The position numbers and the translations under genes were made by a program. This document shows positions 11,066 to 54,045 of a stretch of 64,000 nucleotides of DNA, one piece after another (within the stretch, counting starts at the first letter, position 1; the number at the start of each line of letters is the position of its first letter). The stretch is from an uncultured Trueperaceae bacterium (lineage in GTDB: Bacteria > Deinococcota > Deinococci > Deinococcales > Trueperaceae). Under the pieces are notes generated by a model that had not been told where the DNA came from, ran no database searches, and saw only the letters and a program-made list of their open reading frames with translations. The stretch lies in NCBI GenBank assembly GCA_963815215.1, contig CAWFFU010000014.1, positions 1-64,000 of the forward strand, read 5' to 3'.

Positions 11066-11256
11066 CGGGCACCTCCGGAGGCGGCGGCGGAACTCGACGC
11101 CGCATCACCTCGATGATAGCCGCCGTCAGCCGGTCACGCTCCCCCCGGCGGGTTCGCGTCCCGTAGCCTGGCTTGCACCCCGGTATCGCTTCCATCCGGT
11201 ACTATCATCCCCCTGGCGCACCACGCCACGGGGGTGCCACGGGGGTGAAGCGGGTC

Positions 11257-15382: not shown

Positions 15383-17029
15383 TCAGCGGCCGCGAAGCTC
15401 CTTGAAGGCGTCGATCAGCCCGTTGGTCGAGCTGTCGTGGCTCGTCACGGGCCCGTCGCCGTCGAGCTCCGGCAGCACCGCCTTGGCGAGCTGTTTGCCG
15501 AGCTCGACCCCCATCTGGTCGAAGCTGTCGATGTCCCAGACGACGCCCTGCGTGAAGATCTTGTGTTCGTACAGCGCGATCAGCTTGCCTAGCGTCGCCG
15601 GCGTGAGCTTCTCGAACAGCAGCGAGTTGGTAGGGCGGTTGCCCTCGAAGGTCTTGGCCGCGGCCAGGATGTCGAGCCGCTCCGCAGGGGTGCCGTCTGC
15701 CTCCAACTCGGCGCGCGTCTCCTCACGGGTGCGGCCGCGCATCAGCGCCTCGGTCTGCGCGAAGAAGTTGGCGAGCAGGATGGCGTGGTGCCGCCCCACC
15801 GGGTGGTGGCTCCTGGCGGGCGCCAGGAAGTCGGCGGGCACGAGCTTGGTGCCCTGGTGGAGGAGCTGGTAGAAGGCGTGCTGCCCGTTGGTGCCGGGCT
15901 GCCCCCACACCACCGGGCCGGTGGAGTAGTCGACGCGCTCGCCGGACCTCGTGACGCTCTTGCCGTTGGACTCCATGTCCCCCTGCTGGAAGTAGGTGGG
16001 GAAGAACTCCAGCGTCTCGTCGTAGGGCAGGATGGCGTGCGTCTGCGCGCCGAAGAAGTTGTTGTACCAGACGCCCAGCATCCCCATCGTGGCGGGGATG
16101 TTGTGCTCCAGCGCGGTGGTGCGGAAGTGCTCGTCGACCACGTGCGCGCCCTCGAGCAGCTTCTCGAAGGTCTCGAAGCCGACCGCCAGCGCGATCGACA
16201 GGCCGATCGCCGACCACAACGAGTAGCGGCCGCCGACCCAGTCCCAGAACTCGAACATGTTCTCGGGGTCGATGCCGAAGCCCTCGACGCCCTCGCGATT
16301 GGTCGACAGCGCCACGAAGTGCTTCGCCACCGCGCTCGCGTCGGGCGCGCTCTCGAGGAGCCAGTCGCGCGCGGTGTGGGCGTTGGTCATCGTCTCCTGC
16401 GTGGTGAAGGTCTTGGAGGCCACCAGGAACAGCGTCGACTCGGGGCGCACGCGCTGAAGCACTTCGCTCATGTTGGTGCCGTCGATGTTGGAGACGAAGT
16501 GCACGTGGATCCCGTCGACGTGATACGGCGTCAGCGCGCGCGTGACCATCTGCGGCCCCAGGTGCGAGCCGCCGATGCCGATGTTGACCACGTCGCGGAT
16601 GCGCTCCCCGGAGTAACCGCGCCAGTCGCCGCCGTGCACGGCGTGGCAGAAGCGCTTCATCTTGTCCAGCACGCGGTTGACTTCGGGCATCACGTCCACG
16701 CCGTCGACGCGGATGGGCCGGTTCGAGCGGTTGCGCAGCGCCACGTGGAGCACCGCGCGGTCCTCGCTGGTGTTGATCTTCTCGCCCTCGAACATCGCCC
16801 GGATGCGGTCCTCGAGCCCGGTGTCACGCGCCAGCGCGTACAGGCGCCGCATCGTCTCCTCGGTGACGCGGTTCTTCGAGAAGTCGAAGAGGATGTCGTC
16901 GAGGCGCAGGTGGAAGCGCTCGAAGCGTTGCGGGTCGCGCGCGAAGAGGTCGCGCATGCGGAGGTCTTCGATCTCGGAATGGTGCTGCTCGAGCCGCGTC
17001 CAGGCGGCGGAGTCTGTGAGGGATGGCAT
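15383..17029 (-). CDS. pgi: Glucose-6-phosphate isomerase
   Basis: [70 protein letters not shown]. Confidence 0.97.
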
Positions 17030-17230
17030 CGTATGGAGCCTCCTTCCGGTCGGACGGGCGCCGGCCGTACCCTGCGCGCGGTGCCGGCCGCTTGCCGGCC
17101 TCCGTGCCGAGCGCTGCCGAACAGGACCCGCCCGTGGGGTCCGGTGGGTGGCGTCGGCGGCGCCTCTCGCTGGCCCGAGCCTATCGGCAAGGGCCCGGGG
17201 GTGGGGTCACGCAGCGGACCCTTGGCCGGC

Positions 17231-17295
17231 CCCGTCACTACATCCCGTCACTACATCCCGTCACTACGCCCCGTCACTACACCCCGTCACAACAC
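17231..17295 (+). repeat. Five tandem copies of a 13-bp unit CCCGTCAC(T/A)AC(A/G)(T/C)
   Basis: Units start at 17231, 17244, 17257, 17270 and 17283, in the divergent pgi/HAD intergenic region. Confidence 0.9.
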
Positions 17296-17396
17296 GACGC
17301 CGCCACGCCGGGGCGATACCCTGCGGGGTCGCGCGTGGCGACGCCCCCGGCGCGAGGCCGGCAGCCGGCGCGCCGCACGCCCAGGGGAGGCCTTCC

Positions 17397-18017
17397 GTGC
17401 CCAATAGCATCCGCGCCCTCTTCACCGACATCGGCGGGGTCCTGCTGACCAACGGCTGGGACCGCAGCGCCCGCGCCCGAGCGGCTGAGACCTTCGGTCT
17501 GGACCTCGACGAGCTCAACGAGCGCCACCACCTCACCTTCGACACCTACGAGTCCGGCAAGCTGTCGCTCGAGGAGTACCTGCACAGGGTGGTGTTCTAC
17601 GAGACGCGCGCCTTCACGCCCGGCGACTTCCGGGGCTTCATGCGGGCGCAGTCGCGACCCTTCGACGACATGATCGTCTTCCAGCGGCGTCTCAAGCAGC
17701 GCCATGGGCTGCAGGTGCTGGCCGTCAGCAACGAGGGGCGCGAGCTCAGCGAGTACCGGGCGCGCGCCTTCGACCTGCAGGGGCTGATCGACGCCTGGGT
17801 GTGCTCCGGCTTCGTGCACGTGCGCAAGCCCGACGCCGACATGTTCCGCATCGCCCTCGACCTGGCGCAGGTGGAGCCCGCCGAGGTGGTCTACCTCGAC
17901 GACCGCGCCATGTTCGTGGAGGTGGCGGAAGGGCTCGGCATCCACGGCGTGGTGCATCACGACCTGCCGACGACACGCAAGGAGTTGACGGCGCTGGGGC
18001 TCGATCTTCAGGTCTAG
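17397..18017 (+). CDS. HAD-family phosphatase (HAD-IA)
   Basis: Motif I DIGGVL, motif II VSN, RKPD, YLDD; GTG start after GGGGAGG. Confidence 0.85.
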   Translation: MPNSIRALFTDIGGVLLTNGWDRSARARAAETFGLDLDELNERHHLTFDTYESGKLSLEEYLHRVVFYETRAFTPGDFRGFMRAQSRPFDDMIVFQRRLKQRHGLQVLAVSNEGRELSEYRARAFDLQGLIDAWVCSGFVHVRKPDADMFRIALDLAQVEPAEVVYLDDRAMFVEVAEGLGIHGVVHHDLPTTRKELTALGLDLQV

Positions 18018-19008: not shown

Positions 19009-20442
19009 CTAGCCCGCCGCCTCCAGCCGGTAGGTGCGCAGCACCTGCTCGTACGCCAGCGCCCGCGCCAGGGCGTGGGCGTCCTCCCCGTCCATCAGGC
19101 CGCGCACCCATCGCCCGGCCAGCCAGTTGCTGGCCACCCGGCGCCACACCTCGTGGCGCGCGGGGATGCTGGCGAAGGCGCGGGTGTCGTCGTTGAAGCC
19201 GGCCAGGTTGTACGCGCCCGCCGTCTCCATCACCGCGTCGAGGTAGCGCTCCATGCCCTTGACGCTGTCGAAGAACCACCAGGGCGCGCCCAGCGTGAGC
19301 GCCGGGTAGTGCCCGGCCATGGGGGCCAGCTCGCGGCTGTAACTGCTCTCGTCCAGGGTGTAGACCACCAGGCGGTAGCGCGGGTCGTTGCCGTAGGCGT
19401 TCATGAGCGGCTTCAGGGCGCGGGTCCACTCGGTCGCGAGCGGCATGTCGGCGCCCTTGTCGAGGCCGAAGCGCCGGAACACGCGGCTGTTGTGGTTGCG
19501 CAGGCTGCCCACGTGGAGCTGCATCACCAGCCCGTCCTCGGCGCTCATGCGGGCCATCTCGAAGAGCATGTGGGCGGTGAAGCGCGGCGCGTCGTCGCCG
19601 CGCGGCGTGCCGGCCAGCGCGCGTTCGAACACGGCGCTCGCCTCCAGCTCGGAGAGCGGCGCCACGTCGGCGGTCTTCGAGGCGTGGTCGGTGGCGGCCG
19701 CGCCGAGCTCCTTGAAGAACCCGCGGCGCTGCTCGAGCGCCCGCAGGAAGCCCGGGTAGTCGCTCACCTCGAGCCCGGAGACCTCGGCCAGGCGATCGAT
19801 GTTGGCGCGCCAGCCCTCGGCGTCGAGGTTGAGCACCGCGTCGGGCCGGAAGGTGGGGCGCACCCGGTCGAAGCCCTGATCGAGCATCGTCCGGTGGTGC
19901 TCGAGGGTGTCGGTGGCCGCGTCGGTGGTGGCCAGGGTGTGGATGTTGAAGCGTTCGAACAGCGCGCGCGGGCGGTAGGCGGGCTGCTGGAGCTTCGCCT
20001 GGACGGCGTCGTAGATGCGCTGGGCGTTGTCGCCGCTCAACTTCTCGTCGATCCCGAAGAGCTGCTCGAACTCCAGCGTCAGCCACAGCCCCGTGGGGGT
20101 GCCGCGGAACAGGTGGAAGTGCTCTGCGAAACGCTGCCAGATGGCGCGCGGGTCGCTCTCGACCGGACTGCCGTCGCGGCTGGGGACCCCCAGGTCCTCC
20201 ATCGGCACGCCCTGGCTGTAGAGCATGCGGAAGACGTAGTGGTCGGGGATGATGAAGAGCTGCGCCGGATCGGGCAGGGCGCGGTCCTCGGCCAGCATGC
20301 GGGGGTCGACGTGGCCGTGCGGCCCCACGATGGGCAGGTCCTTGATGCCGGCGAACAGCTCGCGGGCGAGCGCGCGTTGCGCGGGCTCGGGGCTGAAGCA
20401 GCGGTCGGCGGCTGCCGAGCGCGCCGGGGATGCGGTGGTCAT
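19009..20442 (-). CDS. uxaC: Glucuronate (uronate) isomerase
   Basis: HGHVDP, DHYVFRMLYSQG, MQLHVG, GAPWWF, GFNDDTRAF; ATGA overlap with gntK. Confidence 0.93.
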   Translation of the reverse strand: MTTASPARSAAADRCFSPEPAQRALARELFAGIKDLPIVGPHGHVDPRMLAEDRALPDPAQLFIIPDHYVFRMLYSQGVPMEDLGVPSRDGSPVESDPRAIWQRFAEHFHLFRGTPTGLWLTLEFEQLFGIDEKLSGDNAQRIYDAVQAKLQQPAYRPRALFERFNIHTLATTDAATDTLEHHRTMLDQGFDRVRPTFRPDAVLNLDAEGWRANIDRLAEVSGLEVSDYPGFLRALEQRRGFFKELGAAATDHASKTADVAPLSELEASAVFERALAGTPRGDDAPRFTAHMLFEMARMSAEDGLVMQLHVGSLRNHNSRVFRRFGLDKGADMPLATEWTRALKPLMNAYGNDPRYRLVVYTLDESSYSRELAPMAGHYPALTLGAPWWFFDSVKGMERYLDAVMETAGAYNLAGFNDDTRAFASIPARHEVWRRVASNWLAGRWVRGLMDGEDAHALARALAYEQVLRTYRLEAAG

Positions 20443-21062
20443 GGTTTCCCCTCCTTGTTCTGCGGCTCGCTCTGCGGCTCGCTGTGCGGCTCGCTGTGCA
20501 CGGTGCGGTCCTTCGCGTCGCGCGGGGCCTCGCTCGTTGCTGCGGAGCCGCCGGCACGTACGCCGCGTTGGGCGAGCCCGGCGAGCGCCTGCCGCACGGA
20601 GGCCGGTAGGCTGCTGCGCACATCGACGCTCACCGCGTCCTCGGGTTCCTCCAGGTCGCGGAACTGGCTGCGCAGCATCGACGCCTTCATGTAGTGACCC
20701 TTGCGCCGGCGCATGCGCCTCAGCAGCGTGTCGAAGTCGCTGTGGAGGTAGACGAAGCTCACGCGGGCTTCCGGCTCGGCTCCCCTCAGCAGCTGCCGAT
20801 AGCGCTCCTTCAGGGCCGAGCACGACAGCACCAGCGAGCGTCCCTCGGCGGCGTGCTCCTCGATGAGCTGCCGCAGTCGCTCGAGCCAGGGCTGCCGGTC
20901 CTCGTCGGTCAGCGGCACCCCGGCCGCCATCTTGGCGATGTTGGCCTTCGGGTGGTAGGCGTCGGCGTCGGCATAGGCGAACCCCAGGTGGGAAGCGATG
21001 CGCTTCCCGATGGTGGTCTTGCCCGATCCGGAGACGCCCATCACCACGATCGCGTCGGCCAC
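20439..21062 (-). CDS. gntK: Gluconokinase (GntK/IdnK type)
   Basis: GVSGSGKTT, DADAYHP.ANIAKMAAGVPLTDEDR.PW, CSALK..YR, ML.SQF..LE.P. Confidence 0.93.
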   Translation of the reverse strand: MADAIVVMGVSGSGKTTIGKRIASHLGFAYADADAYHPKANIAKMAAGVPLTDEDRQPWLERLRQLIEEHAAEGRSLVLSCSALKERYRQLLRGAEPEARVSFVYLHSDFDTLLRRMRRRKGHYMKASMLRSQFRDLEEPEDAVSVDVRSSLPASVRQALAGLAQRGVRAGGSAATSEAPRDAKDRTVHSEPHSEPQSEPQNKEGKP

Positions 21063-21065
21063 CGC

Positions 21066-22349
21066 TCAGCCCTCCCGCAGCCGGAACAGGTGCTCGCCGG
21101 CGTTCTCAACCAGCAGTAGCCCCTCGTCCTCGCGGTCGCGCCACGCCTCGGGATCGATGCCGGCGGGGTCGCGGTAGCCGAGGTCGATGGCGCGGCACAC
21201 CTCTTCGGGGATGCCGGTGGCGAGCGTGACGCGGATGCGCGGCCGCTCGACGCCGTCCTCGAAGGTACCGCCCCCCTTGACGTGGGTGGAGTGCGCCAGG
21301 ATGGCCCACGGCACGTCCTCGAAGCGCTCCCATTGGTGGGTGAAGTAGTCGCGCACGTGGTAGCCGACCTGCCGGATCAGGTGGCCGTGGACGGTGCTGA
21401 TCTCGTCGAGCTCGGGAGCGTAGATGATGACCTCGCCGCCGTCGGCCACCACCGGCTCGGTCTTGTACATCGCCTTGGCGGCGGTCCACAACTCGTCGTA
21501 CATGGGCGACGGCATCGACAGCACGGAACGGTAGGGACGCGGCTTCCACAGGATGTTCAGCTCGCCCGACAGGTCGGCGGCCGCCTCCCAGGCGCCGACG
21601 AGGTCCCCCAGGTAGAGGCCGTGGAGGGTCTTGCCCTCCATCACCAGCGCGGCCAGGGTCACCGGCCGGGCGTCGGTCACGAAGGCGGCGGCGCGGTGCA
21701 GCACCCGCCTCACGGCGGTGTCCTTGACGCCGATGGTGGCGTGGCTGGTGGCGAGGGCGCCCAGCCAGTGGGTGTTGTCGATGATGTCGGGCCCGGCGAT
21801 GCCGGGGAAGAGGTACTTGGCGCCTCCCGAGAAGCCGGCCACCTCGTGCGGGAACACCGGCCCGACGATCAACAGGTGGTCGTAGTCGAGGATCCTGCGG
21901 TTGAGCCGCACCGGTGTGGGCCGCGTGACGAGGCCGCCGGTCAGCTCCGCCATGGTGCTGTGGGAGATGGTGCCGAGGTCCGTCATGGCGTCGTCGTCCT
22001 GCCAGGCGTGGTTGAACACCCGGCTCTTGGGCGTGCGGCGCGCGCGCTCGCCTTCGTCCATGCCCACCAGCCGGGCGATGGCGTCGTCCGACATGGGCGG
22101 ATGGGTGCCGAGCGCGATCAGGTAGTCGAGCTGCGCCACGCGTTCCCCCAGCGCCTCGTAGAGCCGGCGGTAGAGCATGGGCAGCGGTGCGCTGCGGGTG
22201 CCGTCCGGGATGATGACGAGCACCCGCTTGCCGTCGATCGGGAGATCGGCCAGTCCAGTCTGGAGCAGCCGGGCGACGGCGCTCTCGTCGAGCGCGCGGT
22301 CGAGGTACCCTTCGCCGTGGACGAAGGCGGCAGGCTCGGGGGCGGTCAT
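21066..22349 (-). CDS. LarA (lactate racemase) superfamily protein; candidate mannonate/gluconate 2-epimerase
   Basis: PDGTR (DxTR), ALGTH, FPHEVAGFSGGAK..FPG, NTHW and AAK match LarA catalytic and nickel-pincer-binding residues. The function is inferred from operon context. Confidence 0.85.
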   Translation of the reverse strand: MTAPEPAAFVHGEGYLDRALDESAVARLLQTGLADLPIDGKRVLVIIPDGTRSAPLPMLYRRLYEALGERVAQLDYLIALGTHPPMSDDAIARLVGMDEGERARRTPKSRVFNHAWQDDDAMTDLGTISHSTMAELTGGLVTRPTPVRLNRRILDYDHLLIVGPVFPHEVAGFSGGAKYLFPGIAGPDIIDNTHWLGALATSHATIGVKDTAVRRVLHRAAAFVTDARPVTLAALVMEGKTLHGLYLGDLVGAWEAAADLSGELNILWKPRPYRSVLSMPSPMYDELWTAAKAMYKTEPVVADGGEVIIYAPELDEISTVHGHLIRQVGYHVRDYFTHQWERFEDVPWAILAHSTHVKGGGTFEDGVERPRIRVTLATGIPEEVCRAIDLGYRDPAGIDPEAWRDREDEGLLLVENAGEHLFRLREG

Positions 22350-22391
22350 GGCCGGCCCCTTCCGGGCGGGCGTGGACGATCCATCGCCGGC

Positions 22392-23228
22392 TCAGACCCC
22401 GCTGAAGGCGGAGAAGCCGCCGTCGACCGGAACGATGGCGCCGGTCACGAAGGCGCTGCCGGGATCGACCAGCCACAGCAAGGTGCTGGCGAGATCGCTC
22501 GCCGCGCCCAGCCGCCCCATCGGAGTGTGCCCGACCACGCTGGCGCCGCGCGGCGTCAGCTCGCCCGACTCGGCGTCGACCATGAGGTACTGGTTCTGCT
22601 GGGTCAGGAAGAACCCTGGCGCGAGCGCGTTGACGCGGATGCCGGGGCCGTAGGTCTGGGCGAGGTGCACGGCCAGCCAGCGCGTCAGGTTGTTGACCGC
22701 CGCCTTGGCCGCGGCGTAGCCCACCACGCGCGTGAGCGGCCGTTCGGCCGCCATCGACGACACGTTGACGATGACGCCGCGCCCGCGATCCGCCATGTCA
22801 CGCCCGAACACCTGACAGGCCTGCAGCGTCCCCAGCAGGTTGAGGTCGACCACCCTGCGCAGGGCATCGGGATCGAGGTCGAAGAAGGTCCGGTCGTCCG
22901 TGGCGGTGGCGCGCGGGTCGTTGCCGCCGGCGCCGTTGACCAGGATGTCGACGGGCCCGTAGAGCTCGTGCACGCGCTCGCGGGCACGCTGCAGGGAGAC
23001 CGCGTCCACCACGTCGGCGATGACCGCCTGGGCGTCGCCTCCGTGCTCGCGGATGCGCGCGGCCACCGGCTCGGCCGACTCCAGATGGCGGCTCACCACC
23101 GCGACCCGGGCGCCGGCGCCGGCCAGCGTCTCGGACAGGCTCGAGCCCAGCCCGCCGCTGCCGCCGGTCACCACGGCCACCGAGCCCGCCAGGGGGCCCT
23201 GCGCGCCGGCCACGGGGTCGGCGCTCAT
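22392..23228 (-). CDS. uxuB: SDR-family D-mannonate oxidoreductase (fructuronate reductase, UxuB-like)
   Basis: TGGSGGLG, NGAGGN.P.AT, YAAAK, RVNALAPGFF.T.QN, HTPMGR.G and VDGGFSA.SGV resemble SDR-type mannonate oxidoreductases; lies in a uronate operon. Confidence 0.75.
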   Translation of the reverse strand: MSADPVAGAQGPLAGSVAVVTGGSGGLGSSLSETLAGAGARVAVVSRHLESAEPVAARIREHGGDAQAVIADVVDAVSLQRARERVHELYGPVDILVNGAGGNDPRATATDDRTFFDLDPDALRRVVDLNLLGTLQACQVFGRDMADRGRGVIVNVSSMAAERPLTRVVGYAAAKAAVNNLTRWLAVHLAQTYGPGIRVNALAPGFFLTQQNQYLMVDAESGELTPRGASVVGHTPMGRLGAASDLASTLLWLVDPGSAFVTGAIVPVDGGFSAFSGV

Positions 23229-24727
23229 CGCGCCGCCTCCGCGAAGGGCCGCACGTGCTTGACGAAGTGGCGCTCGAGCGCCGCGTAGTGCTCCTCCTCG
23301 TGGGAGCGCAACTCGCGCTGCAGGGCGTCCCCGTAGGCCTCCAGGGCGGAGCCGAAGGTGACGTGCAACACCTGCCGGGCGTCGAACTGGTCGAGCAGGC
23401 CCGGCAGGTCGGCGTCGCGCAGAGCGCCCTCCTCGGGCACCTTCGCCAGCTCCGCGGAGATGTGGTAGCTGGCGCGGTCGATGGGGTAGCGCACGCGCGC
23501 GAACGCCAGGATCTCGCGGAACAGCGCCGGCGCCACCCCGGCGACGACGCGCAGCGCCTCCAGGTAGGAGGTGCCCGCCGTCTTGAGGTGGGCCAGGCCG
23601 CCGGTGGCCTGCGTGAACGGCCCGTAGACGGAGAACTTGTCCGAGCCGGAGTGCAGGCTCAGCTTGTAGGGCCCGAGCGCGCGGGCGATGGCGGCGTGGC
23701 GCTTGAGGTCGACGGTGAGTGCGTCCACGTCGCCGATGTAGTCCACGCCCTTCTCGAAACGGCCGGGGAAGCGCGGGGCGAGGCTCACCCAGACAACGCC
23801 CAGGCGCTTCAGCTCGAGCGCGATGAAGGCGTGCTCGGCCGGGGAGGTGGGGGTGCCGGTCTCGTCGACGGAGACCTCGAAGTCGAACGCGTCCAGGCGC
23901 GAGGCGAGGTGGCGGTACATACGCGCGACGTGGGCCAGCGCGGCGCCGTACTTGGCTGCGGCGCGCAGCACGGCCTCGCGCTCCAGGGTGAGGCGCTCGT
24001 CCTCCAGCTCGACGACGCGGCCGACGTACGCCTTCTCCAGCGCCTCGCGGGTGGTCTCGAGCCGCTCCCAGGGGAGCGCCGCCAGGCGCCGCTCGAGGTC
24101 GGCGGGGTCCGCGCTGTCGGCGTCATCGTCGACGTGGTCGCCCGGATCCACGGTGAAGAAGGAGAAGCCGGCGTCGACGCAGGCGTCGATGTGTTCGGGG
24201 AGCTTGAGGTGGTCGGCGTCGGCACCGAGCGGCCCGCGCCAGCCCGCTTCGAAGGCGCCGAAGGTGGCGTCGCGCAGCACCTCGGTGGGAGAGCGCCGGG
24301 TGCGCGTCATCTCGCGGATCGACTGCTGCGCGAAGATGGGCGCGACGAGCCCGCCGGCCGCGCCGGCGCGGCCGAGCGAGCGCACGTGGCCGGGCGTGGC
24401 GATGCCGAGGCGGTCGCCGAAGCCGGCCGAAGTGGCGAGTCCGAGCGGGCGCGGCGTCAGGTCGGGCAGGGCCGCACGGAGCGCGGCCGCGTTGGCGTCG
24501 TTCAGCGGGCAGCGCAGCAGCGCCAGCCCGTCGACGGTGCCGGCAGGGGCGCCTTCGAAGCGCTCCAGCACCGGCGATCCCGGCAGCGCGGCGACCAGCA
24601 GGCGCTTGCCGTAGGGCCCGAGCTCGAGCGCCAGCACGGCGCCCTCGAGGTCGGTGCGAGAGCCGGGGTAGAGCTGCGCGCCGGGGCGCGCCAGGCGCTC
24701 GCTGGACAGGGCGGCGGGTCGGGTCAT
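23225..24727 (-). CDS. uxaE: Tagaturonate/fructuronate epimerase
   Basis: GFGDRLG.ATPGH, FAQQSIREM.RT, ADADH, EVSVDET, FEKGVDY, YKLSLHSGSDKF, HLKTAGTSYLEALR, RQVLHVTFG. Confidence 0.9.
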   Translation of the reverse strand: MTRPAALSSERLARPGAQLYPGSRTDLEGAVLALELGPYGKRLLVAALPGSPVLERFEGAPAGTVDGLALLRCPLNDANAAALRAALPDLTPRPLGLATSAGFGDRLGIATPGHVRSLGRAGAAGGLVAPIFAQQSIREMTRTRRSPTEVLRDATFGAFEAGWRGPLGADADHLKLPEHIDACVDAGFSFFTVDPGDHVDDDADSADPADLERRLAALPWERLETTREALEKAYVGRVVELEDERLTLEREAVLRAAAKYGAALAHVARMYRHLASRLDAFDFEVSVDETGTPTSPAEHAFIALELKRLGVVWVSLAPRFPGRFEKGVDYIGDVDALTVDLKRHAAIARALGPYKLSLHSGSDKFSVYGPFTQATGGLAHLKTAGTSYLEALRVVAGVAPALFREILAFARVRYPIDRASYHISAELAKVPEEGALRDADLPGLLDQFDARQVLHVTFGSALEAYGDALQRELRSHEEEHYAALERHFVKHVRPFAEAAR

Positions 24728-25767
24728 GGGTGAACCTCCTCAACTCGCGGCGTCAAGGGACGCACGGGGGCGGCGACGGTGCTGCCGCGCACCACCAGGG
24801 TGGGGCGGAGCACCACCTCGGCGCGCACGTTGCGGCCCGCGATGCGGTCGAACAGGATACGCATCGCGTTCACGCCGAGATCGTACTTGGGGACGTGAAG
24901 AGTGGTCAGCGGAGGGGTGAACATGCGGGCGAAGGCGATGTCGTCGAAGCCGATGACGGCGATGTCCTGCGGCACCCGCAGACCCGCCGTGGCGCACGCC
25001 TGCAGGGCGCCGGCGGCGACGAGATCGTTGTAGCACAGCAGGGCGTCGAGCGGGCCGGCCATCTCGAACAGGCGCGCGGCAGCCTCGGCGCCGTCGTCGA
25101 TGTAGGGAGCGGTCTTGACCAGCCGATCGGGCGAGAGCGGCAGGCCGCGCGCCTCGAGGCCGGCCCGGATCCCTTCCAGCCGCTCGCGGGCGGCGAACGA
25201 GCTGTCGGGGCCGGCGAGCACGCCGATGCGCCGGCGGCCCAGCGCCAGCAGGTGGTCGATGGCCTGCATGACGCCGCTGACGTGGTCGAGGCGTACCGCG
25301 CCGGCCACTTCGGGCGGCGCCGAGCGGTTCACGACCACGGCCGCCCTGTGGCTACGCAGCAGAGCGTGGAGCTGCCGCTCGGGCAGCCTCGGGCTCACCA
25401 CGATGACGCCGTCCACGCGCCGCTCCTCCATCAGCCGCAGGATGTTGGCCTCGCGCCGCTGGTCCTCGACGGCGTTGCTCAGGAACACCCCGTAACCCGC
25501 CTCCAGCGCCACGTCCTCGGCGCCGCGGACGATCTCGGGGAAGTAGGGATTGGTGATGTCGGGCACGACCAGCCCGAGCGTGTGGGAGCGGCTGGCCTTG
25601 AGCCCGCGGGCGAGGCTGTTGCGGCGGTAGCCGAGCTCGTGGATGGCGGCCCGTACCTGCGCCCGCCGCCCGTCGCTCACCCCCGGTTGCTCGTTGAGCA
25701 CGCGGGACACGGTCATGGCGGATACGCCGGCGGCGCGCGCAACGTCCTGGATGGTGACTCGTGGCAT
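24724..25767 (-). CDS. LacI-family transcriptional regulator
   Basis: TIQDVARAAGVS.MTVSRVLN HTH; ND..A.G, VP.DIAV.GFDD, PPLTT. Confidence 0.93.
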   Translation of the reverse strand: MPRVTIQDVARAAGVSAMTVSRVLNEQPGVSDGRRAQVRAAIHELGYRRNSLARGLKASRSHTLGLVVPDITNPYFPEIVRGAEDVALEAGYGVFLSNAVEDQRREANILRLMEERRVDGVIVVSPRLPERQLHALLRSHRAAVVVNRSAPPEVAGAVRLDHVSGVMQAIDHLLALGRRRIGVLAGPDSSFAARERLEGIRAGLEARGLPLSPDRLVKTAPYIDDGAEAAARLFEMAGPLDALLCYNDLVAAGALQACATAGLRVPQDIAVIGFDDIAFARMFTPPLTTLHVPKYDLGVNAMRILFDRIAGRNVRAEVVLRPTLVVRGSTVAAPVRPLTPRVEEVHP

Positions 25768-25973
25768 GTCCGTGGGTCCGCTCCGATCCTGTTCACCGTT
25801 AACGATACCAGACCTCGATCGGCGTTGGAGCGGCGTTGGTGGGGACTCCCGGGAAACTGCGACGGAGCCGGGACATCGTGTCGTTGACACCCTTCGGGGG
25901 CCGTGCTAGCGTTCAGGAGATGTTCACACCACGCCCTCGGCTCGCGTGGACCCACGAGCTTGCGTTCGTTCGC

Positions 25974-25987
25974 GAACGTTAACGTTC
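25974..25987. promoter_or_regulatory. Candidate LacI operator
   Basis: Perfect palindrome GAACGTTAACGTTC upstream of dctP; related GTTCACCGTTAAC at 25791-25803 upstream of lacI. Confidence 0.6.
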
Positions 25988-26087
25988 ACGCGCAGTACGG
26001 GAGGGGTTTGCGAGATGAGAGGGCGACCGCGCTCCGGAGGATCTCCGCGCGGGTGGGGTCCGGTCGTAGACCGGAGAAGGGAGACGC

Positions 26088-27065
26088 ATGCGACGCTTCG
26101 TGATGTCCCTGTTCGTTCTGGCCGCCCTGATGACGGGGGTGGCGACCGCCCAGCAGATCACGCTGAAGGCGGCCGACAACCAGCCCGAGGATTACCCGAC
26201 CGTCCAAGGGCTCAAGTTCATGGCCAACTATCTCGATGCCGCCACCAAAGGGCGCATCAAGATGGAGGTCTTCGCCGGGGGGCAGCTCGGTGACGAGCGC
26301 TCCACCATCGAGCAGGTCCAGCTCGGCGTCATCGACGTCGTGCGCACCTCGACCAGCCCGGTCGGCGAGTTCTACGCGCCCATGGGCGTGTTCAGCATGC
26401 CGTACATCTTCCGCGATGCGGCGCACATGTGGAAGGTCGTGCAGGGCCCGATCGGGCGCGAGCTGCTCGACGGCCTGCAGCAGGCGAACCTCGTAGGGCT
26501 CGCCTACTACGACTCCGGCAGCCGCAACTTCTACACCACCAAGGCCGCCGGCCCCATCAAGAGCGTGGCCGACCTCAAGGGCAAGCGCATCCGTACCCAG
26601 CAGAGCGAGGTCGTCCTGGACATGATGAAGGCGCTCGGTGCGGAGCCCGTGCCGATGGCCTTCGGTGAGGTCTACAGCGCGCTGCAGACCGGCGTCATCG
26701 ACGGCGCCGAGAACAACTTCCCCTCCTACGGCCCGCAGGGCGTGCGCCACTACGAGGTGGCCCCCTACTTCACGCTCGACGGTCACGCTCGCGTGCCCGA
26801 GGTCGTGATGATCAGCAAGTCCAGCTGGGACAAGCTCAGCACCGCGGACCAGAGCCTGGTGCGCGAGGCCGCCCTGGCCAGCGTGCCCGTGGAGATGGCG
26901 CTGTGGGCGAAGCTCTCCAACTCCAGCCGCGACGAGGTCGTGAAGGCCGGCAGCGAGATCATCACGGTCGACACCGCCGCGTTCCAGGCCGCCATGAAGC
27001 CGGTGTACGACAAGTACGGCTCGCAGTACGGCGACCTGATCCAGCGCATCGTCGACACCAAGTAG
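26088..27065 (+). CDS. dctP: TRAP transporter substrate-binding protein
   Basis: Signal peptide, GQLGDE, DLKGKRIRTQ (carboxylate-binding Arg), GEVYSALQTGVIDGAENN. Confidence 0.92.
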   Translation: MRRFVMSLFVLAALMTGVATAQQITLKAADNQPEDYPTVQGLKFMANYLDAATKGRIKMEVFAGGQLGDERSTIEQVQLGVIDVVRTSTSPVGEFYAPMGVFSMPYIFRDAAHMWKVVQGPIGRELLDGLQQANLVGLAYYDSGSRNFYTTKAAGPIKSVADLKGKRIRTQQSEVVLDMMKALGAEPVPMAFGEVYSALQTGVIDGAENNFPSYGPQGVRHYEVAPYFTLDGHARVPEVVMISKSSWDKLSTADQSLVREAALASVPVEMALWAKLSNSSRDEVVKAGSEIITVDTAAFQAAMKPVYDKYGSQYGDLIQRIVDTK

Positions 27066-27081
27066 AGGGGGTCGCGATCCC

Positions 27082-29010
27082 GTGACCCAGCACGCCGGCG
27101 CGGAGGGGGGATCCCCCCCTCCGCGCCACCTCTACCAGCGCATCGAGGACGTCGTCGTCGCCATCGTGCGGGCCGTGGTGGTGGGGCTCCTCGTCGGCAT
27201 CGTGTTCGCCATCTCCTGGCAGGTGCTCACCCGCTACGTCCCGGGTCTGCCGGTGCCGCGCTGGACCGAGGAGGTCAGCCTCATCCTGATGGTGTGGCTC
27301 GCCATGGTCGGCAGCGCACTGGCCGTGCGCACCGGCGAGCATCTGGCCATGGACATCCTCCACCGGCAGGTCGACCCGCGCCTGCGAGCCCCCCTGGTGC
27401 GGCTGGTGTGGCTGCTCGCCGCCGCCTTCGGCGCCTACCTGGTCTGGTACGGCTGGGAGCTGTCGATGCGCACCATGATGCAGACCTTCTCGGCCACCAA
27501 GTGGCCGATCGGCTGGATGTACCTCGGCATCCCGGTCGGCGGCGTGCTGATGCTGTTCTTCTCGGCGAAGAACATCCTGCTGCCACCGCGGTCGTCCTAC
27601 GACGAGGCGGAGGAGCGCACCACCGGCCGCAACCCGTTCGTCCGGATGGTGTTCCTCGTCATCTTGGTGGCACTGGTGGTCGGCGTGGTCGCCCTGTTCG
27701 GCGTCGACAGGCTCTTCGGCCCCATCGGGGCGCTGCTCGGCACCTTCGGCGTGCTGCTGGTGCTGGGCGTGCCGATCGCGTTCGGGCTGGGGATCGCCAG
27801 CCTGGTGACGGTGCTGTTGCTCGGCATCCCGCCGTTGATCGTCGCGCAACGCATGGCGAACGGCGTCAACTCGACGCCGTTGCTGGCCATCCCCTTCTTC
27901 ATCATGGCGGGACAGCTCATGGCCGAGGGCGGCATCGCCGCCCGCCTGGTCGACTTCGCGCGGGTCCTGGTAGGCCCCATCCGGGGTGGGCTGGCGATGG
28001 TCAACGTGGTCGCTTCGATGCTGTTCGGCGGGGCGTCCGGCTCGGCGGTGGGGGACGTCAGCGCCAACGGCTCGATCCTCATCCCCATGATGAAGCAGAA
28101 GGGCTACGACACCGACTTCGCGGTCGGCATCACGGTCGCCAGCTCCACCCAGGGCCTCATCATCCCGCCCAGCCACAATGCCGTGATCTACTCGCTGGCG
28201 GCCGGCGGCGTGTCGATCGGCGCGCTCTTCCTGGGCGGCTACATCCCGGGCATCATGATCGGCCTGGGGCTGATGGTGGCGAGCTATCTGATCGCGCTGC
28301 GGCGCGGCTACCCCTCCGAGCCGAGGCCGCCGCTGAGGCAGAGCGCGCGCATCTCGCTCGAGGCCATCCCCGCACTCGGCGTGGGCTTCATCATCGTCGG
28401 AGGCATCGCCTTCGGCTTCTTCACCGCCACCGAGGCCGCCGCCATCGGCACCGTCACCGCCTTCCTGGTGGGCGCCTTCGTGTACCGCGAGCTCACCCCC
28501 GGCAAGCTGTGGGGTGCGCTGCTGCAGTCGGTGCGGACCATCTCGATCGTCATCTTCCTGATCTCCACCGCCAGCGCCTTCGCCTGGCTCATGGCCTACC
28601 TGCGCATCCCGGCGCTGCTGGCATCCGGGCTGCTGTCGCTGACGCACGACCGGATCCTGCTGCTGCTGTTCATCAACATCCTGCTTCTGCTGCTGGGCGC
28701 GATCATGGACATGGCGCCACTCATCCTGATCCTCACGCCGGTGCTGCTGCCCATCGTCACGGCGCCTCCCATCAACATGAACCCGGTGCACTTCGGGATC
28801 GTGCTGCTCATGAACCTCGGCCTGGGGCTCACCACGCCGCCGGTCGGCACGGCGCTGTTCGTGGGGTGCGCCATCGGCAACATCCGCATCGAGCGCGCCA
28901 GCCGGGCGATGCTCTACCTGTGGCCGGCCATGGTCATCGTGCTGCTGTTGGTCACCTACGTGCCCTGGTTCGTCAACTTCCTGCCCGACCTTCTGCACGT
29001 CCTCCGGTGA
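27082..29010 (+). CDS. dctM: TRAP transporter fused small+large permease (DctQ-DctM)
   Basis: N-terminal QVLTRY...WTEE...GEHL..D (DctQ), then LLAIPFFI.AG, SGSAVGD, IIPPS, TATEA, TPPVG (DctM). Confidence 0.9.
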   Translation: MTQHAGAEGGSPPPRHLYQRIEDVVVAIVRAVVVGLLVGIVFAISWQVLTRYVPGLPVPRWTEEVSLILMVWLAMVGSALAVRTGEHLAMDILHRQVDPRLRAPLVRLVWLLAAAFGAYLVWYGWELSMRTMMQTFSATKWPIGWMYLGIPVGGVLMLFFSAKNILLPPRSSYDEAEERTTGRNPFVRMVFLVILVALVVGVVALFGVDRLFGPIGALLGTFGVLLVLGVPIAFGLGIASLVTVLLLGIPPLIVAQRMANGVNSTPLLAIPFFIMAGQLMAEGGIAARLVDFARVLVGPIRGGLAMVNVVASMLFGGASGSAVGDVSANGSILIPMMKQKGYDTDFAVGITVASSTQGLIIPPSHNAVIYSLAAGGVSIGALFLGGYIPGIMIGLGLMVASYLIALRRGYPSEPRPPLRQSARISLEAIPALGVGFIIVGGIAFGFFTATEAAAIGTVTAFLVGAFVYRELTPGKLWGALLQSVRTISIVIFLISTASAFAWLMAYLRIPALLASGLLSLTHDRILLLLFINILLLLLGAIMDMAPLILILTPVLLPIVTAPPINMNPVHFGIVLLMNLGLGLTTPPVGTALFVGCAIGNIRIERASRAMLYLWPAMVIVLLLVTYVPWFVNFLPDLLHVLR

Positions 29011-29314: not shown

Positions 29315-30613
29315 ATGAAGCGTATCGTCATCCTGTTCTCGTTGCTTGCCTTGCTCGGCAGCACCGCGCTGGCGCAGACGAAGATCGATTTCTTCGAAGC
29401 GTTCAGCACGGAGCGGCTGCAGTGGATCAAGGACCGCGCAGCCGAGTGGAACAAGCAGAACCCGAACTACGAGATCGTGGTCACGCCCAAGGCGTCCTAC
29501 CGCGAGGTCCTCAACGCCGCCGTGCTGGGCGCCCGCCAGGGCAACCCGCCGGCGCTGGTGCAGCTCTTCGAGGTCGGCAGCCAGCAGGCCAAGGACTCGG
29601 GGCTGTTCATCCCGGTCGGCCAGATCCCCGGCAGCTTCGACACCAGCGACTACATCAAGCCGGTGCTCGACTACTACACCATCGACGGCACGGTGAACTC
29701 CATCCCGTTCAACTCTTCGAACGCCGTGATGTTCGTCAACAAAGCCATGATGCAGAAGGCGGGCCTCGATCCCAACAACCCGCCCAAGACCTACACCGAC
29801 GTGCTCAACGACTGCGCCGCGCTGCGCGCCGCCGGTGACACCAAGGACAGCTGCATCACCTTCGCCCTGCACAGCTGGTTCTACGAGCAGTGGATGGCCG
29901 AGCAGAACGCGCCCCTGGTCAACAACGACAACGGCCGCAGCGGCCGCGCGACCCAGGTGCTGCTGACGAGCCAGCCCTCGCTGAACATCGTCAACTGGAT
30001 CAAGGAACTCAACGACAAGGGCTACTACACCTACACCGGCAAGCTCGAAGACTGGAACGGCAGCGAGGCCATCTTCACGCAGGGCCAGGCCATGTTCCAC
30101 ATCGACTCGACCTCCGAGGTGAACGCCATCACCAAGGCCGGCAAGGACGGCGGCTGGGGCGCCGCCACCGCCGAGCTGCCCATCGCCGACAATGCGCCCC
30201 GTGAGGGCGTCGTCATCGGCGGCGCTTCGCTGTGGATCGCCAAGGGCGTGCCGCAGGACGTGCAGCAGGCCGCCCGCGACTTCGCGCTGTTCATGACCAA
30301 CACCCAGAACATGATCAGCTGGCACAAGCTCACCGGCTACTTCCCGGTGCGCATCAGCTCGGTCAACCAGCTCGACAAGGAAGGCTGGTTCCGCGACAAC
30401 CCCAACTACGCCGTCGCGTTCAAGCAGCTCCTGAACACCAAGGCCTCGCCCGCCACGGCCGGCGCCCTGATGGGCCCGTTCCCGCAGGTGCGGACCATCA
30501 TCGAGGAGGGCATCCAGAAGGTCCTCAACGGTGCCTCGGTCGATTCCGCCATGGGTCAGGCGGAGAAGCTGGCCAACCAGGCGCTTCAGCAGTACAACAG
30601 CAACTTCCAGTAA
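29315..30613 (+). CDS. ABC substrate-binding protein (UgpB-like, CUT1)
   Basis: Signal peptide, P.LVQLFEVG, SIPFNSS..VMF.N...KAGLDP, GGASLW, WH..TGYFP. Confidence 0.82.
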   Translation: MKRIVILFSLLALLGSTALAQTKIDFFEAFSTERLQWIKDRAAEWNKQNPNYEIVVTPKASYREVLNAAVLGARQGNPPALVQLFEVGSQQAKDSGLFIPVGQIPGSFDTSDYIKPVLDYYTIDGTVNSIPFNSSNAVMFVNKAMMQKAGLDPNNPPKTYTDVLNDCAALRAAGDTKDSCITFALHSWFYEQWMAEQNAPLVNNDNGRSGRATQVLLTSQPSLNIVNWIKELNDKGYYTYTGKLEDWNGSEAIFTQGQAMFHIDSTSEVNAITKAGKDGGWGAATAELPIADNAPREGVVIGGASLWIAKGVPQDVQQAARDFALFMTNTQNMISWHKLTGYFPVRISSVNQLDKEGWFRDNPNYAVAFKQLLNTKASPATAGALMGPFPQVRTIIEEGIQKVLNGASVDSAMGQAEKLANQALQQYNSNFQ

Positions 30614-30621
30614 TGGCTTCG

Positions 30622-30653
30622 GAGCCGGCGGCGGGTCTTCCCGCCGCCGGCTC
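30622..30653 (+). other. Intercistronic stem-loop after the SBP gene
   Basis: Perfect 14-bp stem GAGCCGGCGGCGGG-TCTT-CCCGCCGCCGGCTC. Confidence 0.65.
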
Positions 30654-30711
30654 TCCCTGACGTCCACGAGCGGCGCCGGCCCGTACCCCGGCGGCGTCGC
30701 AGGAGCCCAGA

Positions 30712-31650
30712 ATGAACGAGGGAACCCCCGTATTTAAGAGCCGGATGGCGGGCTGGCTGCTGCTGCTGCCCACGCTCATCATCCTGGTGATCTTCCTGTA
30801 CTACCCCGCCGTCCAGTCGTTCGTCCTCAGCATGTACCGCAGCAACCTGATCCTGGGGACGCGCCGTTTCATCGGCCTGGAGAACTTCCGGCAGCTCTTC
30901 ACCGGCCTGCTGGCGCCCGGGTACCGCCAGGTCGTGCTGCAGAGCATGGTGTTCAGCGCCTCGGTGGTGATCCTGGGACTCGCCATCAGCCTGGCGTTCG
31001 CGATGCTCGCCAACCAGAAGGTGACGGGCTCGCGCTTCTACCGCCTGCTGCTGATCTGGCCGTTCGCGCTGTCGCCCGCCATCGCCGGCACTATCTTCTC
31101 GTTCCTGTTCAACCCGCAGGTAGGCGAGGTCAACCAGATCCTGTCGCGCCTGTTCGGCATCGCACCGCGCTGGCTGGACAACCCCCTGCTGGCGTTCGGA
31201 CTGGTGGTCGGGGCGGCGATCTGGAAGGAACTCGGCTACAACGTTGTGTTCTATCTGGCGGCGTTGCAGAACATCCCGGGGGAGCTGTCGGAGGCGGCTG
31301 CCATCGACGGCGCCAACGCCTGGCAGCGCTTCCGAGCGGTGACGCTGCCGCTGCTGTCGCCGATGACCTTCTTCCTGGTGTTCACCAACCTGGCCTACGC
31401 CTTCTTCGAGGTCTTCGGCCTCATCGACATCCTCACGAAGGGCGGCCCCGTGGGTCCGAGCGCGCTCAATCTGGACAACGCGGGTCTGACGACGACCATG
31501 ATCTACCGCCTGTATCAGGACGGCTTCGGCGGCAACGGCAGCCTAGGCTTCGCCGGTGCGCAGGGTGTGATCCTGCTGCTGCTGGTGGCCGTCATCACCG
31601 TGTTGCAGTTCCGCTACGGCGGGCGCAACGTTCACTATGGAGGGGGCTGA
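30712..31650 (+). CDS. ABC permease (UgpA-like)
   Basis: FIGLENF, W...GYN...YLAALQ.IP..L.EAA.IDGA (EAA loop), LLSP.TFF. Confidence 0.88.
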   Translation: MNEGTPVFKSRMAGWLLLLPTLIILVIFLYYPAVQSFVLSMYRSNLILGTRRFIGLENFRQLFTGLLAPGYRQVVLQSMVFSASVVILGLAISLAFAMLANQKVTGSRFYRLLLIWPFALSPAIAGTIFSFLFNPQVGEVNQILSRLFGIAPRWLDNPLLAFGLVVGAAIWKELGYNVVFYLAALQNIPGELSEAAAIDGANAWQRFRAVTLPLLSPMTFFLVFTNLAYAFFEVFGLIDILTKGGPVGPSALNLDNAGLTTTMIYRLYQDGFGGNGSLGFAGAQGVILLLLVAVITVLQFRYGGRNVHYGGG

Positions 31651-31651
31651 G

Positions 31652-32578
31652 ATGGCGGCTCGCACAGTGAACGCCGGGGCCTCCGCGGGCAACGGACGGC
31701 GTCGGCGGACCCGTTGGCTCATCCATATCCTGCTGATCCTGAGCTGTCTGATCGTCACCGGGCCGATCCTCTTCGCCTTCATCAAGGCGACGCAGACGAC
31801 GGCGCAGGTGCTGTCGCCGAGCATGATCCCCGGCGGCGAGCTGTGGCACAACGTCAAGACGGCCTGGGTGACCGCCGATCTCGGCGTCTACATGCGCAAC
31901 TCGCTGATCATCGCCTTCGCCGTGACGCTGGGCAAGACGATCCTGTCGCTGATGGCGGGCATGGCGCTGGTGTACTTCCGGATCCCGTTCAAGCCCATCG
32001 TCTTCGGCTTCATCCTGCTGACGCTGATGATGCCCACGCAGGTGCTCATCGTGGGGCTGTTCGACCTGGTGTCGAAGCAGGCGCCGCCGACGTGGGTGGC
32101 GCTGCTCTCCTGGATCGCGCACCCGCTGGCGCCCACGGCCTACGGCTTCAATTGGTCGAACTCCTACTGGGCCATCATCGTGCCGTTCCTGGCCTCCGCG
32201 ACCGGGGTGTTCCTGTTCCGGCAGCACTTCATGTCGATCCCGGTGAGCCTGGCCGACGCCGCCAAGATCGACGGCGCCGGCCCCATGCGCTTCCTGTTGA
32301 GCATCCTGGTGCCGATGAGCACCAACACCATCGGCGCGCTGGCCGTGATCCAGTTCGTCTACGTCTGGAACCAGTACCTGTGGCCGCTGGTCATCATCCG
32401 GCGCGCCGATCGGCAGGTGGTCCAGGTGGGCCTCAACCTGATCATCAGCACCGGGCAGGACACGGAGTGGGGGCTGGTGATGGCAGGTGCCATCCTGGCG
32501 CTCATCCCACCGCTGATCGTGTTCATGCTGCTGCAGGAGCAGTTCATGCGCGGGTTCGCGCTCTCCGCCGAGAAGTAG
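31652..32578 (+). CDS. ABC permease (UgpE-like)
   Basis: SATGVFLFRQ.F..IP..L.DAAKIDGAGP.RF, WNQYLWPL. Confidence 0.88.
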   Translation: MAARTVNAGASAGNGRRRRTRWLIHILLILSCLIVTGPILFAFIKATQTTAQVLSPSMIPGGELWHNVKTAWVTADLGVYMRNSLIIAFAVTLGKTILSLMAGMALVYFRIPFKPIVFGFILLTLMMPTQVLIVGLFDLVSKQAPPTWVALLSWIAHPLAPTAYGFNWSNSYWAIIVPFLASATGVFLFRQHFMSIPVSLADAAKIDGAGPMRFLLSILVPMSTNTIGALAVIQFVYVWNQYLWPLVIIRRADRQVVQVGLNLIISTGQDTEWGLVMAGAILALIPPLIVFMLLQEQFMRGFALSAEK

Positions 32579-32606
32579 TGCGGGGCGCCGGCGGCGGCGG
32601 AGGAGG

Positions 32607-49830: not shown

Positions 49831-49840
49831 GGCGTGGTGG

Positions 49841-50632: not shown

Positions 50633-50670
50633 GCGACGCCCGGCCACCGCGGAGCTACGACCTTGACCAT
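50629..50670 (-). CDS. Candidate 13-aa leaderless uORF (MVKVVAPRWPGVA) coupled to the GntR gene
   Basis: The ATG lies 6 nt after TACAAT, and its TGA overlaps the GntR ATG (ATGA). Confidence 0.35.
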   Translation of the reverse strand: MVKVVAPRWPGVA

Positions 50671-50676
50671 GCCACT

Positions 50677-50707
50677 ATTGTACCAATCCCGGCCGGCCCA
50701 CTATACT
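50677..50707. promoter_or_regulatory. Overlapping divergent promoters of the gntR-murQ and ABC operons
   Basis: Minus strand: TGG-TACAAT (-10 at 50682-50677). Plus strand: TTGTAC (50678-50683), 18 bp, TATACT (50702-50707). Confidence 0.5.
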
Positions 50708-50876
50708 TGACTCGTCCAACGAGGGTGCCGCGCAAGGTGCACGCGGTCGAGCCGCCGGGATCGGCCGGGCGAGACCCGCCCCAGCCGTACGAGCCGGCGG
50801 CGCGCTGTCCCCGGGGGCACGCTCGAGTGCTCGCCTGACCGCGAAGGCGGCAGGGGAGGAAGGATCGGAGGAAGGT

Positions 50877-52109: not shown

Positions 52110-52142
52110 CCCGGGTGGACGCGCGTTCCGTGTCCCTCGATC

Positions 52143-52172
52143 GGTGGGGTCGGGCTCGAGCCCGACCCCACC
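52143..52172. other. Perfect 30-bp palindrome after the SBP gene (intercistronic stem-loop)
   Basis: GGTGGGGTCGGGCTC|GAGCCCGACCCCACC. Confidence 0.7.
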
Positions 52173-52236
52173 CCCCCGACGGGGCCGACGTGACGGCGTG
52201 CGGACGCTCCCCGGTCGCGCCCGGCGGGCCGCGCCG

Positions 52237-53166: not shown

Positions 53167-53167
53167 C

Positions 53168-54040: not shown

Positions 54041-54045
54041 GGCCG

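Follow-up and report, generated by a model that had tools for sequence, protein, structure and literature searches.

The window analysed here is a stretch of 64,000 nucleotides that forms contig 14 in the genome of an uncultured Trueperaceae bacterium (3.32 Mb in 14 contigs, 97.15% complete, not closed). It carries a minus-strand operon, lacI-uxaE-SDR-gntE-gntK-uxaC, in which SDR denotes a short-chain dehydrogenase/reductase gene, and, divergent from it, the genes dctP-dctQM of a tripartite ATP-independent periplasmic (TRAP) transporter. Our main interest is in gntE, which encodes a homologue of LarA, the founding enzyme of a superfamily that uses the nickel-pincer nucleotide (NPN) as its cofactor. 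Among the genomes that we searched, this NPN-type epimerase is an orphan: a phylum nearly devoid of genes for NPN synthesis, the Deinococcota, conserves it under selection.

The G+C content of the window is ~70%, and reading frames were picked by family matches and third-position G+C; values of 0.87-0.96 for the latter back the chosen frames. The first gene of the operon encodes a LacI-family regulator (24724..25890, minus strand; PF00356 LacI helix-turn-helix, 66 bits; Peripla_BP_3, 127 bits), whose true start probably lies downstream of 25890, since the helix-turn-helix begins at residue 46. It is followed on the same strand by UxaE, a tagaturonate/fructuronate epimerase (23225..24727; PF16257, 452 bits, E 2e-135); a UxaD-type SDR, assigned as fructuronate reductase (D-mannonate oxidoreductase; 22392..23228; NF006132, 350.6 bits, cut-off 281); the GntE-type LarA homologue, a putative D-mannonate/D-gluconate 2-epimerase (21066..22349; Lar_N, 84 bits); GntK, a P-loop gluconokinase of the GntK/IdnK type (20439..21062; TIGR01313, 186 bits, cut-off 113.75); and UxaC, a glucuronate/galacturonate isomerase (19009..20442; NF002794, 510 bits, cut-off 387). 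UxaE, GntE, GntK and UxaC are each single-copy in the genome. All parts of the TRAP transporter are encoded on the plus strand, where the solute-binding protein DctP (26088..27065; PF03480, 270 bits) precedes a fused DctQ-DctM membrane component (27082..29010; DctQ at 111 bits and DctM at 368 bits within a single open reading frame [ORF] of 642 amino acids).

The operon genes are translationally coupled by three ATGA stop/start overlaps, at lacI/uxaE (24727-24724), uxaE/SDR (23228-23225) and gntK/uxaC (20442-20439), and the remaining spacers are 42 nucleotides between SDR and gntE and 3 nucleotides between gntE and gntK, the latter starting with GTG. The longest ORF for UxaC reaches 20823; an ATG at 20442 is preceded by AAGGAGG and is the likely start, as the resulting 477-residue product aligns with its relatives from residue 1. 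A sequence-only reading of this DNA had described just such a packed operon with several ATGA overlaps and a divergent TRAP system, and all eight genes were located as it proposed. GntK ends in a low-complexity tail of ~45 residues with HSEP/QSEP repeats (window 20439-20575, minus strand), which is not present in its relatives, whose matches span ~137-177 residues.

What kind of LarA homologue is encoded here? A phmmer search matches GntE end to end with PDB entry 4NAR (E 1.5e-59). An AlphaFold2 model of the protein (predicted local distance difference test 91.6, predicted template-modelling score 0.90) has the two-domain LarA fold, and Foldseek aligns it with 4NAR at template-modelling (TM) scores of 0.87/0.88 and 31% identity, compared with TM scores of 0.57-0.76 for other LarA structures. 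The 4NAR structure is that of GntE2 (LarAH20) from Thermotoga maritima, which is reported to convert D-mannonate to D-gluconate in vitro when loaded with NPN (PMC7583248). The same report gives R75, K184 and H200 as the NPN-binding residues of LarA and D72, H108, H174 and K298 as the catalytic ones (PMC7583248); the equivalents in the window protein are R52, K178 and H194 for binding and D49, H83, H168 and K292 for catalysis. The signature described for the GntE branch, E-V/S following the catalytic histidine and a tryptophan in helix 11 (PMC7583248), is also present, as H168-E169-V170 and W288; this match covers the E-V and W positions of a signature that also includes a helix-14 A/V position.

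GntE is the only Lar_N protein of its genome, and such genes currently carry the database name 'lactate racemase domain-containing protein'. It shares the LarA fold, the NPN-binding and catalytic residues and the branch signature with GntE1 (LarAH19, from Corynebacterium glutamicum) and GntE2, but unlike them it belongs to a separate, large clade, common to Chloroflexota and Acidobacteriota, and its host phylum is nearly without larBCE. The clade comprises >8000 database proteins at E<1e-10, 298 clusters (50% identity) at E<1e-30 and at least 599 genome loci, and also extends to Planctomycetota, Verrucomicrobiota and others. In a quick maximum-likelihood tree, GntE proteins of the window's family fall into two clades, and the one with the window's protein is placed, with support 97, inside a group rich in Chloroflexota; we draw no donor or direction of transfer from this tree. 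A eukaryotic GntE was reported in 2024.

Placing these proteins in order suggests a complete catabolic route, in which each enzymatic step is assigned from homology and gene context. The TRAP system would import glucuronate and galacturonate. Its DctP protein probably binds a hexuronate, its nearest solved chains being 4x8r (E 1.7e-91) and 4n8y (E 1.8e-89), which a paper describes as TRAP binding proteins with bound glucuronate and galacturonate. UxaC would then convert glucuronate to fructuronate and galacturonate to tagaturonate, UxaE would epimerize tagaturonate to fructuronate, and the UxaD-type SDR would reduce fructuronate to D-mannonate. GntE would invert C2 of D-mannonate to yield D-gluconate, GntK would phosphorylate gluconate to 6-phosphogluconate, and Gnd, which is encoded outside the operon, would pass 6-phosphogluconate into the pentose phosphate pathway. 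All six enzymes, UxaC-UxaE-UxaD-GntE-GntK-Gnd, are encoded, with uxaE-uxaD-gntE-gntK clustered.

The content of the genome is consistent with this route. In a Pfam scan of 61 ORFs of the window (23 + 38), UxuA, UxaA, UxaB, Eda and any PfkB-type sugar-acid kinase were not found, in agreement with the sequence-only reading, which had noted that uxuA, uxaA, uxaB, kdgK and eda are missing from the window. That reading had also proposed a search of the whole genome. Profile searches there found no UxuA, no Eda and no UxaB/UxuB of the Mannitol_dh family. ManD is likewise not found, as the best match to its model reaches 42 bits, far from the cut-off of 550; the two enolase-superfamily genes present encode MenC (291 bits, over its cut-off) and a protein resembling muconate-lactonizing enzymes and dipeptide epimerases. 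There is no Edd either, the single ILVD_EDD gene being IlvD (759 bits; the Edd model gives 242 against 708). Gnd, which lies on other contigs, is represented by two full-length genes and one partial match. Because the genome is without Edd and Eda, entry through the Entner-Doudoroff pathway is excluded; of the two entries that the earlier reading had left side by side, the pentose phosphate pathway stands and the Entner-Doudoroff pathway falls away. The chemistry that it had proposed, from uronate via fructuronate, mannonate and gluconate to 6-phosphogluconate and the pentose phosphates, is otherwise supported by homology, context and genome content.

The logic of this pathway is sound, but it is already published. 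The route UxaC-UxaE-UxaD-GntE-GntK-Gnd was proposed by Rodionova et al. (2012) for T. maritima, whose pectin/galacturonate locus is described as aldH-pelB-gnd-uxaRED-gntEK; a TRAP system for uptake, uxaPQM, is reported from other species of Thermotoga (PMC6978723, PMC3750489). Desguin et al. (2020) then reported NPN-dependent epimerase activity of T. maritima and C. glutamicum GntE (PMC7583248), so the Thermotoga GntE that the sequence-only reading named is real, and the route as such is not new. The window shares with T. maritima the set of six enzymes and the internal order uxaE-uxaD-gntE-gntK. It differs in having a LacI-type regulator instead of the GntR-type UxaR, and in that uxaC lies within the operon and gnd does not. 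UxuA, KdgK, KdgA and NPN synthesis are further features of T. maritima, which served as a search control; none of them was found in the window genome, in searches that covered all but KdgK. The pathway itself extends a Thermotoga-type route to another phylum, which is useful for annotation; the new part is its setting in a phylum nearly without lar genes.

We consider it probable that this is a hexuronate operon of the Thermotoga type and the only uronate route visible in the genome, the gap in it being the supply of a cofactor to GntE. Several points weigh against this. GntE scores only 182.9 bits, over residues 18-357, against NF052594, the model for LarAH18 hexonate epimerases, whose cut-off is 500; it thus belongs to no curated equivalog, and no curated models of LarAH groups 19 or 20 appeared in the NCBI model scan of the protein. 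The Km values for mannonate of the published GntE enzymes are reported as high, 17 and 120 mM (PMC7583248), so that the native substrate could differ. On contig 11 of the genome, at ~546-548 kb (locus L112), lies a divergent UxaA/GarD-family dehydratase-like gene of 384 codons, which scores 143 bits against the 731 of the GarD model and has an ORF of 141 amino acids upstream and a D-2-hydroxyacid dehydrogenase nearby. Of the Ashwell route, UxuA, ManD and Eda were searched for and not found in this genome.

The high Km for free mannonate also bears on the order of the last two steps. These could be reversed, with the kinase acting on mannonate and the LarA homologue converting 6-phosphomannonate to 6-phosphogluconate. 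In extracts of Lactobacillus suebicus, which is described as sharing the upper steps by UxaC, UxaE and fructuronate reductase and as arriving at 6-phosphogluconate too, with the kinase first and the epimerase on 6-phosphomannonate, both activities were reportedly measured, although the genes were not identified there; our literature search found no later paper naming the genes of this route. However, the T. maritima and C. glutamicum enzymes are reported to act on free mannonate (PMC7583248), the window kinase exceeds the cut-off for GntK/IdnK gluconokinases, and gntK is missing in 10/20 family clusters in which gntE stays. We regard the reversed order as the least probable of the alternatives discussed here.

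We then turn to relatives of the window genome, using 101 genomes of its family, including its own. In this sample gntE is present in 80/101 genomes, uxaE in 53/101 and uxuA in 33/101, and gntE accompanies uxaE in 50 of the 53 UxaE-positive genomes. These counts include an unpublished gntE- and uxaE-positive genome, G033; when it is left out, they become 79/100 for gntE and 52/100 for uxaE, and no claim depends on G033 alone. Across 20 family loci, SDR and gntE are adjacent in 16, and uxaC is found in 14, uxaE in 12, lacI (adjoining uxaE) in 11, gntK in 10 and DctP plus DctQM in 9. Nine loci of two further Deinococcota families have SDR-uxaC-gntE-gntK and no uxaE, which would make them a glucuronate-only form of the operon.

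The sequence-only reading had expected the cluster to be anticorrelated with uxuA. This is contradicted by the family counts, in which gntE is found in 28/33 UxuA-positive and 52/68 UxuA-negative genomes, and we reject the idea that gntE replaces uxuA. In fact, uxuA stands beside uxaE and gntE in the clusters of three genomes (G019, G048 and G078). On the other hand, uxaE and gntE occur with neither uxuA nor lar genes in 29 genomes of the family, or 28 when G033 is left out; there, GntE is the sole visible exit of the operon.

The reported requirement of LarA enzymes for NPN makes the lar genes the critical comparison. In the window's own genome LarC is not found, and the LarB and LarE models score at most 24.8 bits (cut-off 175) and 28.8 bits (cut-off 150), respectively. 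Such searches do detect the genes where they are present, as larE, larB and larC lie adjacent to each other in the same 7/101 family genomes, with scores of 197-415 bits. In contrast, 74 of the 80 family genomes with gntE are without larB, larC and larE, several single-contig genomes among them. At the level of the phylum, for which LarC alone was scored in 201 genomes that are all at least 90% complete, LarC occurs in 3/201, all in the window's family, while gntE occurs in 37/201 over three families; 35 of these 37 holders are without LarC. As a control, 30 genomes outside the phylum with a gntE that is 47-65% identical were examined, and 27 of them have LarC.

An explanation by which larBCE is hidden in an assembly gap was rejected. 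Although the genome is 97% complete and not closed, the family counts make a hidden cluster unlikely, given that the genes were found at high scores in 7/101 genomes and that the lar-less holders include single-contig assemblies. Two of the lar-positive family genomes encode no Lar_N protein besides GntE, which fits the use of NPN where it is available. The three outside holders without LarC are G106 (locus L064; a nearly closed genome of 5.2 Mb with the locus on a scaffold of 5,201,286 bases), G110 and G128, so that an orphan GntE is not confined to the Deinococcota. The reverse kind of orphan was seen in one single-contig family genome, G036, which carries larE-larB-larC and encodes neither GntE nor any other Lar_N protein. 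About 15% of genomes are reported to have larB, larC and larE without a larA homologue (PMC11796402); user and makers of the cofactor are uncoupled there as well, but as the mirror image of the present case, in which the user occurs without the makers. The literature covered treats LarA homologues throughout as NPN enzymes. Neither larA homologues lacking larBCE, nor NPN salvage, nor LarA enzymes independent of NPN came up in it, with the caveat that the survey of lar distribution by Desguin et al. (2014) was outside the scope of that search and may count larA-only genomes. The assay suggested in the sequence-only reading, expression together with larBCE and nickel, overlooked that the host itself has no larBCE and presupposes the very point in question.

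Is the orphan gntE still a live gene? Ten key residues (D49, R52, H83, H168-E169-V170, K178, H194, W288 and K292) are invariant in the window protein, in 20/20 family loci and in 9/9 loci of the two other families. The same invariance in 80 loci of other phyla is partly built in, because these loci were found via search patterns that contained five of the key residues. Ratios of nonsynonymous to synonymous substitution rates (dN/dS, Nei-Gojobori) are 0.15-0.35 for close lar-less pairs, and the same for pairs that include a lar-positive genome. Conservation outside the family reaches at least 85% in 144 alignment columns. When 18 lar-less family sequences are set against these, at least 90% of the sequences retain 104 of the columns, and most of the sequences deviate in only 3, each time by a mild change (I to L, R to A and D to E). 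By every test available at the sequence level, the orphan gntE is alive and under purifying selection.

These observations bear directly on the possibility that in most of these genomes GntE is a relic or an apo-protein that stands idle, mannonate then being a dead end or handled by an unrecognised dehydratase. The cofactor genes were indeed not found, and the one uncharacterised UxaA/GarD-family gene elsewhere in the window's genome, where KdgK was not searched for, could be such a dehydratase. Yet the reading frames are intact, the key residues invariant and dN/dS low over many genera; gntE is translationally coupled within an operon equipped with a transporter and a regulator; and the genome has no Eda to complete a route via 2-keto-3-deoxygluconate. 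We consider an idle enzyme quite improbable.

A different possibility is that GntE in this phylum works without NPN, using another hydride acceptor that fits the mononucleotide pocket, for example unmodified nicotinic acid mononucleotide or nicotinamide mononucleotide. This would explain why the gene is under purifying selection although larB, larC and larE are generally lacking across the phylum, and why gntE can be the sole exit of the operon in the 29 family genomes described above; moreover, LarA chemistry has been described as a transient hydride transfer, comparable to that of NAD-dependent epimerases. However, the nickel ligand H194, the tethering K178 and R52 are invariant in 30/30 lar-less or lar-poor sequences, and the pocket shows no systematic change relative to orthologues from LarC-positive phyla. 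Remodelling of the cofactor pocket was thus not seen in the comparison of either residues or columns. In addition, the LarA homologues assayed so far are all reported to have needed NPN (PMC7583248). We consider an NPN-independent GntE unlikely.

On balance, we lean towards the view that the Deinococcota keep an NPN-type epimerase with an intact site as an obligatory step of hexuronate catabolism in the absence of LarB, LarC and LarE, which would call for import of NPN, a different cofactor or a novel synthesis. Among these, import is the one that we favour because the cofactor site is intact, and it is a reasonable prospect, although somewhat short of an even chance, that GntE has kept its need for NPN or a late precursor, which is taken up from NPN-making neighbours. 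There is an analogy in the apo-glucose dehydrogenase of Escherichia coli, which needs pyrroloquinoline quinone, a cofactor that the cell cannot make, and becomes active once it is supplied from outside. This, too, is a conserved apo-enzyme without a cofactor pathway, but the analogy may reach only so far, since the dehydrogenase faces the periplasm and requires no uptake across the inner membrane, whereas GntE would be cytoplasmic. Other considerations count against import: we know of no uptake system for NPN, and NPN is labile. Furthermore, taxa that use NPN are reported to be mostly anaerobic, whereas one named member of the window's family is strictly aerobic; its genome paper gives growth on 'carbohydrates, organic acids, amino acids' only.

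A candidate for local cofactor synthesis emerged from the gene neighbourhoods of relatives. In many loci gntE and gntK are separated by a small gene of ~137 codons, whose ends overlap the adjoining stop and start codons. It encodes a type I phosphoribosyltransferase (PRT) domain (PF00156, 50-62 bits) that has no curated equivalog; a model of it most closely resembles purine phosphoribosyltransferases (17-24% identity), and the source names of the family are Trueperaceae/Deinococcales only. Copies are found on contig 11 of the window's own genome (480420-480833, plus strand, equivalent to L123:8421-8837), at L115:10089-10502 and at L012:8865-9374 (minus strand). The possibility that we consider here is that an unrecognised, non-homologous route, perhaps via this small PRT, makes NPN or a related cofactor. 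Because NPN is a mononucleotide, a step that joins a base and phosphoribosyl pyrophosphate (PRPP) would be chemically apt.

The association of this gene with gntE is in some respects close. In L115 it overlaps both the gntE stop and the gntK start; in the two other families it adjoins gntE at every locus (9/9), and in the window's family it does so in 15 genomes; and it is next to gntE in 0/80 loci and present in 0/30 genomes outside the phylum. Across those two other families (f2 and f3), PRT occurs in exactly the 9 gntE-positive genomes of 149 (9/9 versus 0/140), although this pattern could also be explained by transfer of one block. On the other side, 44 family genomes have gntE with neither lar genes nor PRT, and among metagenome loci of the family gntE lies upstream of PRT in only 10 of the 63 with enough upstream flank, and gntK downstream in 8 of 68. 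On these three counts we reject PRT as an obligate partner of GntE. Its fold is nearest to that of ordinary purine phosphoribosyltransferases, and such an enzyme alone would not replace the insertion of sulfur and nickel. The copy in the window's own genome lies away from the operon, and its neighbours (MsrA, cytochrome b/Rieske, VIT1, oxidoreductases and GH15) give no hint of a role. We take PRT as a weak lead for a base-plus-PRPP step in cofactor supply, not as an explanation, and hold an unrecognised synthesis of this kind to be very unlikely. In one genome with larEBC, the gntE-adjacent PRT copy (G094:C13:163474-163875) has an in-frame TAG; this is a single case.

The enzymology of NPN assumes that a LarA homologue is accompanied by LarB, LarC and LarE. 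The ~35 lar-less genomes with a selected GntE provide a natural test of whether NPN is shared between microbes or LarA can run on another cofactor, and the question is open to experiment at the bench because the phylum has cultured aerobic members. If NPN is indeed imported, NPN auxotrophy and salvage would be seen here for the first time, and either answer would change the prediction of NPN-dependent metabolism from genomes.

Regulation of the locus is probably exerted through the divergent spacer between lacI and dctP, where the LacI-type repressor would control both units. The spacer contains a perfect 14-base inverted repeat, GAACGTTAACGTTC, at 25974..25987. Even when up to 1 mismatch is allowed, this palindrome has no second copy in the 3.3 Mb genome, and it is kept at the same place in a locus of the same genus (L013); it was not found in the other 19/20 family loci at up to 2 mismatches. 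We regard it as no more than a candidate operator.

Several further features of the window lie outside the operon. Just past it is a gene for phosphoglucose isomerase (15383-17029, minus strand), which is overlapped by a haloacid dehalogenase-type hydrolase ORF (16662-18017, plus strand) whose start is probably later than listed. Downstream of the TRAP genes (29315-33635), a sugar ATP-binding cassette (ABC) transporter is encoded by a binding protein and two permeases on the plus strand, convergent with an aldo-keto reductase (32607-33635, minus strand). NPN-dependent aldo-keto reductases were reported in 2026; the genome of the window is itself without lar genes. The region 47915-56328 is likely an N-acetylmuramic acid/peptidoglycan-recycling cluster, with two SIS-domain genes, a GntR/UTRA regulator and an ABC transporter; it includes a long ORF of 979 amino acids with NamZ exo-muramidase domains and a BadF/BcrA-type ATPase domain, which probably represents more than one gene merged. 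Lastly, an 847-residue ORF at 11173-13716 (plus strand) combines a major facilitator superfamily transporter with a cytidylate-kinase-like domain, an unusual fusion if real.

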